DNA of 39,614 bases from a virus. Taxonomy: Duplodnaviria; Heunggongvirae; Uroviricota; Caudoviricetes. Location of the stretch: IMG/VR virus record IMGVR_UViG_2579778871_000008, one strand, 5' to 3'. Made by a program: the position numbers and the translations under genes. Each line of letters starts with the position of its first letter. The stretch's first letter is position 1. The notes beneath the pieces are model-generated. The model saw nothing but the letters and a program-made list of their open reading frames with translations. It did not search any database and was not told where the DNA came from. Shown here piece after piece: positions 24,281 to 30,580 of the stretch.

Positions 24281-25384
24281 TCAAACAATCTGAAAAATAT
24301 TTCTTGGATTTGTAATAGGTCGATTGATGGAGAACAACTCACGAATTAAATCTTGACTCAAGCCAGTTTTCATCAGAATTCTTAACCAAGTTGCATCATC
24401 CAGCATGTCAATCGCTTCGGACAGCATACTTGGTTCTTCGGGGCGCAAAAGTTCATCACCTGGTTCAACTCTCGTGTACCCTCTAGAATTAAGATGCATA
24501 TAGCCAGTTCTTGCCTGTTCCTGGGTCAATAGTCCTAATGCACTGGCTCGATAAATACACATTTTAAGGCTAATTTTCCATCTAAGCTTAAATTCAACCA
24601 GAGCACTCCAATCGAATTGCTTACCTCGTATTCGTGGAAATTCTTTAATGAAAGATAGCCTAGGAACCAATAAGGCGCTAGAAAAGTGATCAGCTTGTGA
24701 TTCCGTAAGTTTATCACCAGTAGTTATGCCCTCATGCATTACTAAATGCCCTAACTCATGACCTAAATCAGAGCGAAATCTACATATGCTTTTTTTTACA
24801 TTGTTCCTGATAATAACAGGCCTGTTATTGTGAACAGTGAATGCATCAACACGATCATCGACTCCCGTAACATGCGCAACGATTACCCCCAAACTCTCCG
24901 CCAATTTCACCATTGATGATATAGGACCAAGACCTAGATTCCATGCACGGCGACAATCTTCTGCCACTCGCTCAATATCATTCGGGGTCAGTAATTCAGT
25001 TCCTGGGTGCTCTGGTATGTTGACATCAGGGAATTCGATTTCACCTTCAACAGCAGAAATTATAATATTAAGAATCTCAGCCCTGGCCAAGACACTATTA
25101 GTCAGCGTTTGAGTCCTAGACTTCTTACTCCGAAAATGGCAAACATCGCTTTCCAGAGCATATTTTCGCTCAGTAAATAGAAAATCGGACTTAATCATAA
25201 GAGCTGAGGCTATTAACTCCAGGCATTGCTCTGATGGCCTAAATCCCTTCTCCAATTTGCTAACGAATTGCTTTGTTTTGCCAATTTTTTCGGCCAACTC
25301 TTCACATGAAAGCCCAACTGCCATTCTTGCTAGTTTGAGCTTATCGCCTCGATACTCAGTGAAGTTATTCACCTGATGTTCCAT
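24281..25384 (-). CDS. XRE-family HTH fused to ImmA/IrrE-type zinc metallopeptidase (COG2856/M78-like)
   Basis: 367 aa; N-terminal HTH (LARMAVGLSCEELAEKIGKTKQFVSKLEKG) and HEXXH motif HELGHLVMHE in the middle; start overlaps the upstream ORF. Confidence 0.8.
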   Translation of the reverse strand: MEHQVNNFTEYRGDKLKLARMAVGLSCEELAEKIGKTKQFVSKLEKGFRPSEQCLELIASALMIKSDFLFTERKYALESDVCHFRSKKSRTQTLTNSVLARAEILNIIISAVEGEIEFPDVNIPEHPGTELLTPNDIERVAEDCRRAWNLGLGPISSMVKLAESLGVIVAHVTGVDDRVDAFTVHNNRPVIIRNNVKKSICRFRSDLGHELGHLVMHEGITTGDKLTESQADHFSSALLVPRLSFIKEFPRIRGKQFDWSALVEFKLRWKISLKMCIYRASALGLLTQEQARTGYMHLNSRGYTRVEPGDELLRPEEPSMLSEAIDMLDDATWLRILMKTGLSQDLIRELFSINRPITNPRNIFQIV

Positions 25385-26015
25385 TACTGCTCACATCCAA
25401 ATTTTTATCCTTCGTACGCCGACGAAGAGACACCTTATTAATCTCCGCTTCGCCAGGGAGTGTGTTACCGTCAAGGGGCATAAGTGGCATTGATGCTGTA
25501 GATTGATGAGAAACCATACTAATCTGAGCACCATAGGTATTAAACCCAACAAGAGCCACCTCCCAACGAGGCAGTGTGGACTCTAATTCACCATCTCCCT
25601 CTTCGGATAAAAATGGCTCCGCTATGACTCGCCATGTAATGTCTTGCTCAGCCTCAACATCACCAAACAATGAAAGCTGCTCATGCTCTACTTTATTTCG
25701 ACGCAGGCGATGTTTCTTTTTGGGGTTATTAATGCAATCTTTGGTAAATTGTAGCGGAACTTTATTTAAAGCAACTACATAGTCCAACCCCTTGGAAATC
25801 ATCTTAAGACCAGGAATTGCGCCTTCATTTTGAATAAGATGGTTTCTGACCCAATCATAAGCCCTTACACCTTCAGACCAGTTGCTGTCTAATACGTGCT
25901 TATGATAGTACAACTGCTCAAGTACGTTAGCGATCTCCGCCAACAACTGGCGAACATTGCTTTCAGCAAGATAAGGTTGAAATTCCCAACAAGGAGCTAA
26001 CTGATTTTCATTCAT
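25365..26015 (-). CDS. hypothetical protein co-transcribed with the HTH/ImmA gene (candidate effector/toxin partner)
   Basis: 216 aa, no recognisable motifs; its 3' end overlaps the downstream start by 20 nt; putative TTGACA promoter upstream near 26040-26075. Confidence 0.5.
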   Translation of the reverse strand: MNENQLAPCWEFQPYLAESNVRQLLAEIANVLEQLYYHKHVLDSNWSEGVRAYDWVRNHLIQNEGAIPGLKMISKGLDYVVALNKVPLQFTKDCINNPKKKHRLRRNKVEHEQLSLFGDVEAEQDITWRVIAEPFLSEEGDGELESTLPRWEVALVGFNTYGAQISMVSHQSTASMPLMPLDGNTLPGEAEINKVSLRRRTKDKNLDVSSNGTSGE

Positions 26016-26180: not shown

Positions 26181-26336
26181 TTACTCCTCAGGTTCGTAAG
26201 CTGTGAAGACAGCGACCTCCGTCTGGCCGGTTCGGATTCGTACCTCGCAGAGGTCTTTCCTCGTTACCAGTGCCGTCACTATGACGGTTAAACAGATGAC
26301 GATCAGGGCGATTAACATCGCCTTATGCTGCTTCAT
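26181..26336 (-). CDS. hok: Hok/Gef-family type I toxin (HokD/RelF-like)
   Basis: 51 aa MKQHKAMLIALIVICLTVIVTALVTRKDLCEVRIRTGQTEVAVFTAYEPEE, a hallmark Hok/Gef sequence; ORF-track entry 26181-26393 is an in-frame upstream extension. Confidence 0.85.
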   Translation of the reverse strand: MKQHKAMLIALIVICLTVIVTALVTRKDLCEVRIRTGQTEVAVFTAYEPEE

Positions 26337-27361
26337 AGCCTGCTTCTCCTTGCCTTTCGGCACGTGAGAGGCTAACCTACGTGTGCAAGTCATAGATATG
26401 GCCTCAGATTAATGTTAGGCGTCTTGCAGGACGCGTAATGTTAACTGGGGCTTTTCTCTATCTGCCGTTGGTATTCATGCCTGAGACAGATAGCCTCAAG
26501 CACCCGCAGCAATCCTACTTAACTCCCGTCACCTCGCCAATATAAAATCAATCAGAAAGGCGATCCATAAGAACAACAGCAAGACAATAAATTGCCATTA
26601 CAGCCGCAATAGCGAGCGCACATTTGAGAACCAGCACGACAACCTCCTGTATTGGACGTACACCAGTCCTGATAAATATGAGGCTGTCTCATCATTGATG
26701 AGATACAACTATTGGGAATAGTTTCTGTGATTTTGTTCTGTAGAAATGGAACACAACAACCAGTCACCACCAGCACTTCTTTAAAAACGCCAAGTCCGAC
26801 GCAAGCTAACCTTCTAGTCCGCTTTGAACGATGAGCGGAAATTGACATATCTGTTAAAGTGAATGGTTCGTTTTGCAGGGATACTTACACTGCCCCCTGT
26901 CAAAATGATATAGCGAAGAATAAGAGTTCTTCTTCAAGAACAACAAAAAGAGATCATTCCAGCATGCTGGAAACGCAGCGTGTAATGATGACGGATAAGA
27001 CTCTGGCGCATTCCATGACAGCGGCAAAGGCCATAGCAGCCAATCAGATAGCTAGAATAGCCGCGAGGAAGGAAAGCCACCAGCAAAATGAAGCCATCGA
27101 GCGCTTGCGCGTAAATACGCGAATCTTAAACGGCGCAGAGATGCAGATTTACCCGCAACTGGCGACTTCAGCAATGAACCGCATACAGACCGAGTAAGTG
27201 ATGCGCTGGATGCCGTATTGAAAAGACAGCCAGAAAAGCGGTATTGGGTTCCAGAGGGTTTTAGAGGTTAAAGCGCTCACAAATCTAGCTAATTTGTAAC
27301 CATCTTTAAACGTTTATGATATTGTTAAATAAAACTAAAACTACCACGGCATGATTTACCG

Positions 27362-28060
27362 ATGAAAAAAGAACTTGAAACCATACTGCCTGAGTTTGGT
27401 GAGGCAATTCGCCCTTACGTTTATAGTTACGTAACAGCAAACAAAAATGCCAATGCCAAGCACGTCCTGTTTATGGCTGGTTCGCCTGCTGCAGGTAAAA
27501 CCGAGCTCTTAAATCGTCTTTTAGAACAACATGGCATCACAAACATTGTTCGAATTGATGCTGATGATTTTCGCTGGTGGTTCCCCTACTACAATGAAGA
27601 GAACTCTGTGGACTATCAGAGACCTGCCTCCAGAATGGTCGATTTTATCTACAAAAAAGCGCTATCTGAAGGCTATCCCATTGTTATGGACTCTACTTTC
27701 TCCAGTATAGGTATTGCGGAGAGAAACTTTGATCTGGCCCTGAAGGCTGGTTATCAGGTAGCACTGAATTACGTCTATTTTGATCCGGCTTACGCGTGGG
27801 TTTTTGCCCAAGCCCGCTCTCGTAAGGTTCCGTTAGAGGTTCTTAAAGCGAACTTTTTCAAGAGCAGAGAGACCATTGAACATATGCTCGCGAAATATGC
27901 AGGCCTATTTACACTCAATGTTTATCATCGACGGGAAGATCCTGAAAATGATGGTCAGTTCGTGGTCGACTATACTCCTAACGTGACCCTTGAAAACTGG
28001 ACTACCTCCCATAGCTGCCCATATTCAGACGTTAGCGATCTAGCGCATTTAGGTGTATAA
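27362..28060 (+). CDS. P-loop kinase, zeta-toxin/AAA_33-like
   Basis: 232 aa; Walker A FMAGSPAAGKTELLNRLL near the N-terminus and Walker B-like hhhhD (PIVMDSTF). Confidence 0.65.
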   Translation: MKKELETILPEFGEAIRPYVYSYVTANKNANAKHVLFMAGSPAAGKTELLNRLLEQHGITNIVRIDADDFRWWFPYYNEENSVDYQRPASRMVDFIYKKALSEGYPIVMDSTFSSIGIAERNFDLALKAGYQVALNYVYFDPAYAWVFAQARSRKVPLEVLKANFFKSRETIEHMLAKYAGLFTLNVYHRREDPENDGQFVVDYTPNVTLENWTTSHSCPYSDVSDLAHLGV

Positions 28061-28079
28061 TAAGTGTCCTATTTAAGGA

Positions 28080-28712
28080 GTGTATATGTCTGTTAAAACT
28101 GAAGCCATTAAACCAGCTGCTGAAATTTCGTTGTTCGATGCATTCGGACCTAACGTGAGCGAGCGGGTACAAGCCATCAACCGGAAGGCCGCTGAGCTTT
28201 CTATGGCTGATATGGCTCAGGTAATGGACGTGACATTATCGTCTAGGAAGAAACTGGAAGTAACTGCTGAGAGCAAATATATTCTCGATTTGCCTCAATG
28301 GCTAGAAGTCAATGCACGGAAATCTGGAGTTTCTTTTGACATGAAAGCATACACTTCTGCTGAAGTTAACAAGATGCATGTTCCTGACTTTCGCCAGTTC
28401 CTTCCTGTAGGTGCAAATATGTTGCATACCTATTCACCAATCGGTAAAACGGGCCTGCAAGGAATTCATGATTATTTAATCGGTGCTGTTTCATCTAAAC
28501 TTCATCACTTGCAAGGTGTCGGAGTTGATGAGGGCACGTTTAAAATACTTATCCGCTATGAAGATGCTAAAACGGGTGCTCCCCGCAATGATATAGTTGA
28601 AGCTGAGTCGACAATTAGCCCAAGTTCTTTCACTAGGCTCAAGCCCCGTGTGAAAAAACTTCGCAGAAAAGGTCATGAAATGGCGATGCATGCACTAATT
28701 GCCAAAAAATAG
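28080..28712 (+). CDS. hypothetical protein co-transcribed with the P-loop kinase
   Basis: 210 aa ORF 20 nt after the kinase; AAGGAG SD before the internal ATG at 28086; followed by a strong terminator. Confidence 0.5.
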   Translation: MYMSVKTEAIKPAAEISLFDAFGPNVSERVQAINRKAAELSMADMAQVMDVTLSSRKKLEVTAESKYILDLPQWLEVNARKSGVSFDMKAYTSAEVNKMHVPDFRQFLPVGANMLHTYSPIGKTGLQGIHDYLIGAVSSKLHHLQGVGVDEGTFKILIRYEDAKTGAPRNDIVEAESTISPSSFTRLKPRVKKLRRKGHEMAMHALIAKK

Positions 28713-28725
28713 TAAGCCCTTAACA

Positions 28726-28752
28726 AAACCTCACTCGATTGTGAGGTTTTTG
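28726..28752 (+). terminator. intrinsic terminator after the kinase operon
   Basis: cctcac-tcgatt-gtgagg hairpin followed by ttttt. Confidence 0.8.
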
Positions 28753-29250
28753 CTTTCTGGCGTTCTAAAAGTCAATCACTCCAGCTCACCAGCGCGGTTA
28801 ATCTCTAAAACCGATTTAGTTTTCGGCATAGTGCCCTTCGTCGTCTCTTTCTGCGTACATCAAACAACATCTACGGCCCATAGCGGATCACCATCAGCAT
28901 GCAGCCACTGACTGGTTAAAGTCTCCTTTTCGTTTATCTTAGCAAGCTGGTACTGCGTGTGGATCCCGCCCATTTCTGCATACTGTCGAAAATCGATGAG
29001 ATGGCCAGTCGTGTTTGTTATTGGTCTATTTTTGAAAACAACTATCAATGCTATTGGTCTGTTCTTCGTTAATTAATATGCAATCCTTTCATGACACAGG
29101 GCTGCTGTTACAGCCCTGACAACCTTAGACTTCAATCGATTCAGAGATCTCTAACGCATCATCGCCCCGTTGAACTCACAGCGATAAGTAGACGCTGGCG
29201 GCAATAACACAGAAGTATAGCGGGAATTTGAACCACATAATTTATGTTTG

Positions 29251-30117
29251 TTAGATGGCTTTGCTTCGATATTCAATTTCTAAAATCGCCTTTGTCATTG
29301 CCGCAATAGTTATAGCTTCTACCATAGTTAATTCAGGCCTGTTCAAGCTTCCGTGTCCAGCAGTAGGTAGTTTGTTGCGTAAATCATAAATATCTTTAAC
29401 AACATCAATAAGATTCTTAGGTAATTTTGACATTTTTTCGAACTGTTTAAAAAAACCACCCAATGACTCATTTGCCACATTCGGGTTTTGAGTGATTTCC
29501 TTCGCCATAGTTTCTAGAATATTAGAGGCTGCGTGCAGTGCACCCGCCGGGTCATTATTATCCAAGCAATTATTCATTCTATCTATTTGCTGAATGATAT
29601 TTGGATGCAATCTCTTTAAGTAATCACTAGCCAATTCTTCATTGAAGTTTTTGACACTTTCAAAAACATCGCAATCTAAATAAAATTTAGGATTGACTGA
29701 CATCCATGTATATTTCCAATCATTTTCTAAATTATCTTTTTCCGCACTAAGCCTGCCAGTATCCTGATCTATCTAATCAACATATTTACACATATAATCG
29801 GCGTAATAGTGTAAATATCTAAATGATATTTCTGGGCAAAAATTACTAACTGATGCAAGGCCGCCATATTCTTTTGTAGTAACTGTAGGGACTTCTTCAT
29901 CACATAAATATGAGAAACTAGTTCTTTCCCAAAATTCGCCCAACTCTTTTTCTTTCCTAGTTGCCATACCAGCTATCATATTGATGCTTGAGAGCAAAAC
30001 TACACTCTGATAGTACCGAGGACATCTGTATGAACTAGCATATGGGCATTTTGATGATGCTTTACGATTAATACGCTCTTTTTCCCACCAATTTTTATCA
30101 GGAATAATTCTTTGCAT
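29251..30117 (-). pseudogene. AT-rich ORF of about 288 codons interrupted by one in-frame TAG (candidate nonsense-disrupted moron gene)
   Basis: ORFs 29773-30117 and 29251-29703 are in the same frame, separated only by TAG at 29773-29775 and 23 sense codons. Confidence 0.45.
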
Positions 30118-30580
30118 AATTTATGCTACTATCTCACGAGTGAATGAATGTTTAGCCTTCTGCACAGTTTATCAGTTCCGGCATACCTACTGCTACCCCA
30201 CTGATTCAACTTTAAGTTATGGATTAAAGCGATTCGGTTTCGCTAGATGACACACTAGTGTTAACTTATGGATAAAAATTTATCACTTAAAATTAACTAA
30301 TGACTGTAGCGACCAAAAGTGTGCCAGAATGTTATTTTCGTCTGGCCTATTATCAATCTAATTACCCAAATTAAAGTTACTCTCCTTCATCAGCAAAAAA
30401 TAAATACGCCGTTCACTTTCTCAAAGTGTTCCTGTGTTATTTTTAAAGTTAACAACGCCGTCTATTCGTCCAAATGTACAACAAACATCAGACTCAGGCA
30501 CAACGCTGACAATGAGAATAGTTCTAGCCCTGTGCCACAGAAATGTCAATTCACATATGTATTAATGCTCTTTAATCTCG

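Follow-up and report, generated by a model that had tools for sequence, protein, structure and literature searches.

Organization of the Locus

The window analyzed here, the whole stretch of 39,614 nucleotides (nt) of IMG/VR record IMGVR_UViG_2579778871_000008, represents a lambdoid E. coli prophage similar to Rac/Qin, and all coordinates of E. coli genes and proteins given below are positions in this window. In the interval from hokD/sok to the DUF977/O-like replication genes we found a cassette of two genes on the plus strand, antisense to these genes. The first open reading frame (ORF), ORF1 (27362-28060), codes for a P-loop kinase of the zeta toxin family with 232 amino acids (aa; RefSeq WP_000711879.1), which is a putative toxin, and the second, ORF2 (28086-28712, plus strand), for a partner protein of 208 aa (WP_000114220.1). 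The surrounding prophage genes Q, DUF968, hokD, DUF977, O-like and ydaT are all located on the minus strand, which agrees with the opposite orientation of the pair described in the initial annotation of this locus. The GC content of the cassette is 43-45%, compared with ~50% for the replication genes and ~35% for a neighboring convergent two-gene module.

Both genes are separated by a conserved spacer of 25 nt (28061-28085, plus strand) with the Shine-Dalgarno (SD) sequence AAGGAG at 28075-28080. The distance is 24-29 nt and mostly exactly 25 nt in all loci with an intact kinase, and the AGGAG core is retained in all of them, so that the good SD sequence originally assigned to the downstream gene is also a property of its relatives. 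The initial annotation had placed the start of a 210-aa ORF 20 nt behind the kinase. The ORF itself is present, but the start has to be corrected: GTG 28080 follows the kinase stop codon by 19 nt, and the true start is almost certainly ATG 28086, because this codon sits 5 nt past the SD sequence and every homologue begins with MS(V/A/F)K/E... at this position. This gives the 208 aa and the 25-nt gap mentioned above.

The cassette ends with an intrinsic terminator on the plus strand (28725-28750), which was detected by a terminator scan and consists of the hairpin AAAACCTCAC-TCGATT-GTGAGGTTTT followed by the T-rich sequence TGCTTTCT. The hairpin folds with -19.2 kcal/mol (z = -4.6 versus shuffled sequence) and is preserved in relatives by compensatory changes in the stem, which substantiates the hairpin plus T-tract noticed before. 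As there are A and T runs on its flanks, the terminator may act in both directions. A conserved, co-oriented gene pair with its own terminator is also in line with the proposed co-transcription of both genes.

Upstream of the kinase, ~130 nt 5' of the ATG can be aligned across copies in unrelated contexts, and we consider 27265-27361 (plus strand) as the putative leader or promoter region of the cassette. It includes the elements TTGTAA (27294-27299) and TATGAT (27315-27320) on the plus strand; the promoter itself can only be inferred, since a promoter scan did not report a plus-strand site above its threshold in the leader. A mini-ORF of four codons (MIYR*, 27351-27365, plus strand) overlaps with its stop codon the ATG of the kinase (ATGA overlap), and a mini-ORF of 3-4 codons ending on the kinase start codon is kept in close relatives including the Pectobacterium and Enterobacter copies. 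There is no SD sequence in front of the kinase start, neither in the window copy nor in close relatives. It is possible that the overlap with the mini-ORF in combination with the missing SD sequence holds the output of the kinase low by translational coupling.

ORF1 Belongs to the Zeta Toxin Family

ORF1 is a genuine zeta-toxin-family kinase by all sequence and structure criteria applied. Profile searches for the families that had been under discussion (zeta toxin, AAA_33 and polynucleotide kinase) gave by far the clearest result for Pfam PF06414 (Zeta_toxin), which matches residues 28-181 with an E-value of 7e-29 and 101.1 bits at a cut-off of 22.3; the AAA_33 match in Pfam is weaker and the polynucleotide-kinase family PHROG 505 was reached with 1.3e-4. 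RefSeq names the product 'zeta toxin family protein'. Among the sequences of solved structures ORF1 matches PezT (2p5t, E-value 1.4e-10) and zeta (1gvn, E-value 3e-4), with an identity to PezT of only ~20-25%. An AlphaFold2 (AF2) model calculated from 26 family members reached a predicted local distance difference test (pLDDT) of 91.5, and a Foldseek search of the Protein Data Bank (PDB) with this model lists zeta (1gvn, 3q8x) and PezT (2p5t) on ranks 1-8 with E-values of 7e-11 to 7e-9 and a template modeling (TM) score of ~0.67. AvrRxo1 (4z8q) comes next and O-phosphoseryl-tRNA kinase (PSTK) and polynucleotide kinases (Pnk) rank lower. The suggestion of a zeta-toxin-like kinase is therefore confirmed by profile, sequence and fold.

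To compare the active sites, residues were mapped through the HMMER alignment to zeta, for which the roles have been described (PMC3062530). The Walker A motif GSPAAGKT named in the initial annotation spans residues 40-47 of ORF1 and its lysine K46 is retained. D67 of zeta, the catalytic aspartate that takes the proton from the substrate hydroxyl group (PMC3062530), corresponds to D68 of ORF1 (IDADD), and both residues are invariant in the 26 family members. The other pairings (E100 to D94, E116 to D110, T118 to T112, T121 to S115 and T128 to N122, from zeta to ORF1) are kept or conservative and invariant or nearly invariant in the family. In zeta, E100, T118, R120, T121 and T128 bind uridine diphosphate N-acetylglucosamine (UDP-GlcNAc, UNAG), and R120 contacts the UDP phosphates (PMC3062530); D94, D110, T112 and N122 of ORF1 occupy positions with UNAG contact in zeta. 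R120 is replaced by S114 in ORF1 and the position is variable in the family (S/A), and because of the loss of this phosphate contact UDP-GlcNAc should not simply be assumed as the substrate. The ratio of non-synonymous to synonymous divergence (dN/dS, Nei-Gojobori) is 0.06-0.11 for the kinase, indicating strong purifying selection. Judged from these residues, ORF1 appears to be competent for catalysis, and its substrate is probably a small molecule linked to a nucleotide.

Only the N-Terminal Module of ORF2 Is Conserved

For ORF2 we could not find a match in Pfam, PHROGs, PADLOC, NCBIfam or the PDB sequences, neither with the single sequence nor with the family profile, and the N-terminal module described below (N-module) also did not match a Pfam family; as far as these searches reach, ORF2 belongs to no described family. 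A word-indexed search with ORF2 yielded 23 clusters, all from Enterobacterales. An exhaustive hidden Markov model (HMM) search of 1.84 billion representative proteins with the ORF2 profile returned only 33 matches, of which two (the long repeat proteins P0070 and P0074) are spurious and reflect Ig/CUB or low-complexity repeats. A profile word search for additional N-module proteins added just two.

The alignment divides ORF2 into three parts. Residues 1-48 (28086-28229, plus strand; MSVKTEAIKPAAEISLFDAFGPNVSERVQAINRKAAELSMADMAQVMD) are almost invariant with the consensus MSVKTEAIKPAAEISLFDAFGPNVSEQVQAINxRAAELSMDDMAxVMG and form a module of ~50 residues with the signature SLxDxFGP…AAxLSMxDM, which is the putative kinase-neutralizing element. 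The remainder of the gene (28230-28712, plus strand), with ~30% identity in the alignment, comprises the middle and the C-terminal part with the basic tail. Residues ~50-125 are hypervariable with insertions and deletions, and the C-terminal third shows moderate conservation with a helix, a beta-hairpin (VGVDE..IRY.D.KTGA.R) and the basic tail KKxRRxGRE…AKK. Structure prediction, which had been proposed for both proteins, gave for ORF2 (AF2, alignment of 24 sequences) a mean pLDDT of only 49 with values below 50 for residues 50-123, and the protein is probably largely disordered according to this model.

The same division is visible in the substitution rates. The dN/dS ratio (Nei-Gojobori) is 0.5-2 and thus near neutral in the middle part and ~0.4 in the C-terminal part, and the non-synonymous divergence of the N-module is as low as that of the kinase. 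Kinases which are 74-87% identical have ORF2 partners with only 30-40% identity. At 34-40% identity between the kinases the partners share just a KSLRDLFGxxLTE…RAA motif and the basic tail.

Two minor observations concern the same region. The synonymous divergence (pS) of the first 48 codons of ORF2 is below that of the kinase (0.19-0.42 versus 0.35-0.70), which hints at a constraint on 28086-28229 at the nucleotide level, such as mRNA structure or the initiation region, or at recent recombination. The SLxDxFG sequence was also considered as a clamp-binding motif, but this idea was dropped after inspection by eye, as position 4 is an aspartate and not a hydrophobic residue.

The Kinase and the N-Module Are Tightly Linked

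To analyze the linkage of both genes, all 43 fetched loci were surveyed by script. Every full-length kinase in these loci is followed by an ORF with an N-module 24-29 nt downstream, also where the kinases are just 34-40% identical, and there is no intact kinase without an N-module among them. The pairing is beyond chance, because ~20 independent genomic contexts contain the same two genes at the same spacing. The length of the partner varies from 58 to 266 aa: an intact kinase is combined with a 58-aa partner, which is essentially the N-module alone, in Pluralibacter gergoviae and independently in a metagenome contig, and shortened partners that keep the N-module are also found beside intact kinases in Pectobacterium araliae (96 aa) and P. 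versatile (125 aa). The N-terminal ~50 residues are the only universally conserved part of ORF2. The partner had been described as an unknown protein; what had been missed is that the downstream ORF is a likely antitoxin by virtue of these ~50 residues.

An intact partner also occurs without the kinase (second copy of locus L007, L023): P0021, a partner of 226 aa, persists on F-like plasmids where the kinase is reduced to its last few codons. In the decayed copies L014-16 the kinase is frameshifted and the partner is cut behind the N-module. More distant zeta-like kinases (~33-34% identity) on plasmids of Shewanella and Pseudomonas do not have an N-module partner, which implies that the association of kinase and N-module is limited to this enterobacterial clade.

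The Pair Moves Between Mobile Elements

The pair is rare, and its two genes travel as a tightly linked unit between mobile elements of Enterobacterales. Of 5,426 complete E. coli genomes only 8 contain it, always with 99.7-100% identity. Other copies are located on Enterobacter plasmids adjoining RepL, IncFII RepA, Rep3 or ParA genes, on a conjugative Kosakonia plasmid, in an island of Pectobacterium where an integrase gene and P4-like genes are adjacent, in Klebsiella-type prophages and other IMG/VR contigs, and on the chromosomes of Serratia, Pluralibacter, Pectobacterium and Pantoea. The flanks differ completely between the copies and represent a Rac-like prophage, a Klebsiella-type prophage, a P4-like island and RepL, IncFII, Rep3 and IncFIB plasmids. 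At the DNA level the phage genome collection does not contain the pair, and all IMG/VR copies are on contigs of 20-90 kb of unclassified lifestyle.

This distribution also bears on the idea that ORF1 is a nucleotide or polynucleotide kinase that supports lytic growth of the phage, for example in metabolism, in RNA or DNA repair or in counter-defense in the style of T4 Pnk versus PrrC, the last of which had been one of the options of the initial annotation. The weak match to PHROG 505 and the lower-ranked Foldseek hits to Pnk and PSTK would fit, but zeta, PezT and AvrRxo1 clearly outrank Pnk in sequence as well as in fold. Furthermore, the pair comes without a phosphatase or ligase partner, phosphatase domain or neighboring repair gene, it is antisense to the early operon with a terminator of its own, the same cassette resides on plasmids and islands, and its representation in the phage collection and in IMG/VR is that described above. 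We consider such a role of the kinase very improbable, and the counter-defense option is not maintained.

In the window, RefSeq annotates an ORF for a hypothetical protein of 77 aa (26964-27197) 165 nt upstream of the kinase on the same strand, within a remnant that spans 26859-27197 (plus strand). It shows 43-47% identity over 70-82 aa (E-value 1e-12) to the C-terminal region encoded by RepL-family genes (PF26868), which are located in front of the cassette on Enterobacter plasmids, and in the other cassette loci it is absent as an ORF; a fragment of 28 codons is left in the Klebsiella-type prophages only. Based on this similarity the ORF is the 3' part of a P1 RepL-like gene, a hitch-hiking remnant and not a functional partner of the cassette, and it suggests that the prophage gained the cassette from a RepL-type plasmid or phage-plasmid.

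The size, the helix-rich character and the position of the 77-aa ORF would be compatible with an epsilon-like antitoxin in a system of three genes, comparable to omega-epsilon-zeta, where ORF2 would be an accessory regulator. As the ORF is a RepL-like C-terminal remnant, is missing from the other contexts apart from the 28-codon fragment and does not match a family, it was ruled out as an antitoxin and we give almost no credit to a three-gene system. The statement that there is no evident epsilon-like antitoxin upstream of the kinase therefore holds, as no upstream ORF is conserved.

Virulent Phages Carry N-Modules Without the Kinase

The profile search with ORF2 also returned short proteins that are made of one or two N-modules, which had escaped the first inspection of the sequence. 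One of them, P0084 (101 aa), contains two modules in tandem; the neighboring genes on its contigs match PHROG families with E-values of 1e-62 to 1e-93, and at the DNA level there is 93-94% identity with two jumbo phages, Xanthomonas phage XbC2 and Erwinia phage Kaldavass. Single modules are encoded by gp168 of Pantoea phage vB_PagS_AAS21 (L048:1489-1770; MK770119, 98743-99024) and by its homologue in Erwinia phage KEY, both of which are T5-like Demerecviridae. P0085 is located in a small-gene region of a T5-like phage with 87% identity to Bacteriophage Eos. Besides the gp168 locus, the phage N-module loci include L045:765-1070, L050:5001-5396 and L049:1159-1377.

A profile built exclusively from 12 kinase-linked modules recognizes P0084 with 79.7 bits, P0085 with 48.0 bits and AAS21 gp168 with 39.2 bits (E-value ~4e-7 for a search of the size of a phage database), and XbC2_378 with a marginal score of 25.2 bits. 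A tblastn search of the N-module phages AAS21, KEY and XbC2 with the kinase did not give a match. Each phage module is closest to the partner lineages of its own host group, with small margins. Scans of viral contigs with the phage N-module proteins did not reveal anything further.

The simplest reading of these sequences is that the phage proteins are captured antitoxin modules which would neutralize such kinases. We tentatively propose, as a possibility that should not be overrated, that the cassette is an abortive-infection defense and that T5-like and Rak2/GAP32-like jumbo phages took up the N-module as a decoy antitoxin, in one case as a tandem pair, which would inhibit the released kinase again. 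The N-module proteins without a kinase in virulent phages favor abortive infection over stabilization of the carrier element. The first interpretation of the pair as a moron with a toxin-like or abortive-infection function fits with our data.

Type VII systems such as TakA/TglT, in which a kinase antitoxin inactivates the toxin by phosphorylation, offer a model with reversed polarity, where ORF2 would be the toxin and ORF1 the antitoxin. The gene order would then be the conventional one with the neutralizing component first, and it is the kinase that is the more conserved partner. In such an arrangement, however, an intact ORF2 would hardly persist without the kinase as it does in the second copy of L007 and in L023, and phages would not be expected to carry the module alone. 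Furthermore, ORF2 is mostly disordered and dispensable or nearly neutral over most of its length, unlike an enzyme or a pore toxin, and the combination of a strong SD sequence for ORF2 and no SD sequence for the kinase would result in excess toxin. We therefore regard a reversed polarity as improbable.

A Toxin–Antitoxin-Like Model for the Cassette

In our view the cassette is probably, though by no means certainly, a toxin-antitoxin (TA)-like module of the epsilon/zeta lineage with inverted gene order and a new kind of antitoxin, in which the N-module neutralizes the kinase. The N-terminus of epsilon blocks the adenosine triphosphate (ATP) site of zeta, and MqsA, an antitoxin encoded by the second gene, binds its toxin via the N-terminal domain (PMC4803016); both examples serve as an analogy for the neutralization of the kinase by the N-module. 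Furthermore, AvrRxo1:Arc1 represents a zeta-family toxin with a downstream antitoxin (PMC4938570). In addition, the cassette adjoins plasmid replication genes and the window copy still holds the repL fragment.

According to this model the N-module would bind the kinase and occlude the active site, as the N-terminus of epsilon does at the ATP site of zeta. The strong SD sequence of the partner compared with the SD-less kinase would keep the partner in excess. Because it is predicted to be largely disordered, the partner would be labile and probably short-lived. If its synthesis stops, either by loss of the plasmid or prophage or by phage-induced shut-off of the host, the kinase would be freed and could phosphorylate an essential nucleotide-linked metabolite, leading to arrest or death of the cell. 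A UDP-sugar such as UDP-GlcNAc would be the default guess for this metabolite, with the reservation that the pocket is not identical to that of zeta. The pay-off would be stabilization of the carrier element, abortive infection or both.

Several points weigh against this model. The contact of the N-module with the active site of the kinase is inferred by analogy, and the parallel conservation of both is no proof of an interaction, because adjacent genes are inherited together. With 208 aa, ORF2 greatly exceeds epsilon (90 aa) and Arc1 (98 aa) in length, it does not contain a recognizable DNA-binding domain, and it is not similar to any known antitoxin. UDP-GlcNAc may not be the substrate of ORF1, and some solitary zeta homologues are reported to be non-lethal (PMC4803016). 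In PADLOC-DB v2 the kinase has only insignificant matches (E-values 0.04-0.06) and ORF2 has none. Some decayed copies have lost both genes, as the kinase is truncated and the partner region deleted in L012/13, and the kinase is disrupted and no partner ORF is called in L026. The asymmetry between loss of the kinase and loss of the module (~4 kinase-disrupted lineages versus none with a disrupted module) is suggestive, but due to the few independent events it is not statistically significant on its own.

Some of these points would also fit a kinase that is not toxic and for which ORF2 serves as substrate, as scaffold or as regulatory or targeting subunit, or a pair that modifies an envelope precursor and in this way alters the phage receptor as a lysogenic conversion. 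The serine in the N-module motif SLxDxFG is nearly invariant and the kinase could phosphorylate this Ser/Thr-rich module, the pocket differs from UNAG kinases by the loss of R120, some zeta homologues are reportedly not lethal (PMC4803016), and the pair occupies the position of a lysogenic-conversion moron. On the other hand, the zeta-family enzymes characterized so far are small-molecule kinases (PMC3062530, PMC4938570) and the cassette is found beside plasmid replication genes and in TA or defense islands and not with envelope genes. The body of the partner is dispensable and evolves nearly neutrally, and the kinase-less modules of virulent phages would be hard to explain if the module were a mere substrate. 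We consider a non-toxic function unlikely and continue with the TA-like reading.

Comparison With Known Zeta-Type Systems

As judged by sequence, the operon is outside of epsilon/zeta-PezAT, by antitoxin and gene order, and outside of AvrRxo1:Arc1, by antitoxin, as these systems are defined. With epsilon/zeta of pSM19035 and PezA/PezT of S. pneumoniae it shares a P-loop kinase that agrees in Pfam family and fold and has the conserved Walker A lysine and catalytic aspartate, the organization as a two-gene operon on mobile elements near plasmid replication functions, and N-terminal neutralization, which is known for epsilon and proposed for ORF2. In contrast to these systems, where the antitoxin is encoded upstream of the toxin, ORF2 is located downstream of the kinase, and with ~210 aa, no helix-turn-helix motif and mostly disordered sequence it does not show detectable similarity to epsilon or PezA in Pfam, NCBIfam and the PDB sequences. 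The missing conservation of R120 in ORF1 is a further difference to zeta and the substrate may differ as well.

AvrRxo1:Arc1 of Xanthomonas and relatives resembles the cassette in that the zeta-fold kinase comes first and is followed by a tightly linked downstream gene, in its mobility (PMC4938570) and in the frequent inactivation of the kinase while the downstream gene survives. AvrRxo1 differs by its size of ~420 aa, a type III secretion signal and the phosphorylation of nicotinamide adenine dinucleotide (NAD), and it ranks below zeta and PezT in the Foldseek search with ORF1. Arc1 is a helical protein of 98 aa from a class of 81-121 aa with the motif KExFD(x25-27)(Y/L)ExxYY (PMC4938570), which is absent from ORF2 and from the alignment of its family. 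EzeT of E. coli and ng_epsilon1/zeta1 of Neisseria are, like the cassette, Gram-negative zeta-family systems with non-canonical architecture and an altered substrate range; EzeT differs in that the antitoxin domain is fused to the N-terminus of the same chain, and ng_zeta1 by an epsilon encoded upstream and an OB domain at the C-terminus. A downstream N-module partner is missing from both types, and no such proteins were among the matches of the exhaustive profile search with ORF2.

Few TA toxins poison the metabolism of the cell wall or of nucleotide cofactors. Zeta toxins belong to these, and only few of their architectures are known. The cassette adds a Gram-negative lineage across Enterobacterales with the toxin gene first and an antitoxin candidate that is unrelated to epsilon, PezA and Arc1. 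We did not find any literature on this pair or on its accession numbers. If the proposed role of the N-module is true, its ~50 residues would be sufficient as a natural and compact inhibitor for a bactericidal kinase. The R120-less pocket raises the possibility that the kinase has a new target metabolite.

Dmd of T4 acting against RnlA/LsoA and the pseudo-ToxI of phage ΦTE are phage-encoded mimics of antitoxins. The N-module proteins are similar to them as stand-alone homologues of a host TA neutralizer in virulent phages, with the difference that such a role for the modules of AAS21, KEY, the Eos-like phage and the jumbo phages is deduced from homology and the absence of the kinase. The N-modules in phages of the same host groups would link zeta-type toxins to defense and counter-defense, a link which has been proposed for TA systems in general and for which we found no literature report for this family. 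If the decoy reading is correct, they would be portable peptide inhibitors of zeta-family kinases and the cassette would provide the first documented case of a phage counter-measure against a zeta-type system.

Neighboring Cargo Genes

The interval between hokD and DUF977 (26400-30580) is a variable cargo hotspot of E. coli lambdoid prophages, and the description of the pair as an inserted moron is in line with accessory cargo at such a site. In other strains the hotspot contains NACHT, SMEK plus methyltransferase, DUF4209, QueH, alpha/beta hydrolase or DUF7167 genes. To its left are located the type I toxin gene hokD (26181-26393, minus strand) and the sok antisense RNA (26331-26505, minus strand; Rfam RF01794, 105 bits). 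In a Klebsiella-type prophage (L038:7956-9860) the cassette adjoins genes for an AAA_21/AAA_15 ATPase and a DUF4435 protein, which is a PARIS-like pair of domains.

The AT-rich convergent module mentioned above (29251-30117, minus strand, ~35% GC) consists of two genes for a 150-aa protein with a sub-threshold match to Abi_C (E-value 1.2e-4) and a 114-aa protein of no assigned function. Since other E. coli genomes that lack the kinase pair also contain this module, it is separate cargo, and it is possibly related to defense. Furthermore, a 216-aa protein encoded at 25365-26015 (minus strand) matches RmrT in PADLOC (1.4e-24) and PHROG 5786 (6.5e-83). The 3' end of its gene overlaps by 20 nt with the start of a gene for a 367-aa protein (24281-25384, minus strand), which follows downstream on the minus strand, and both may form an RmrTA-like TA or defense pair in the nin region.

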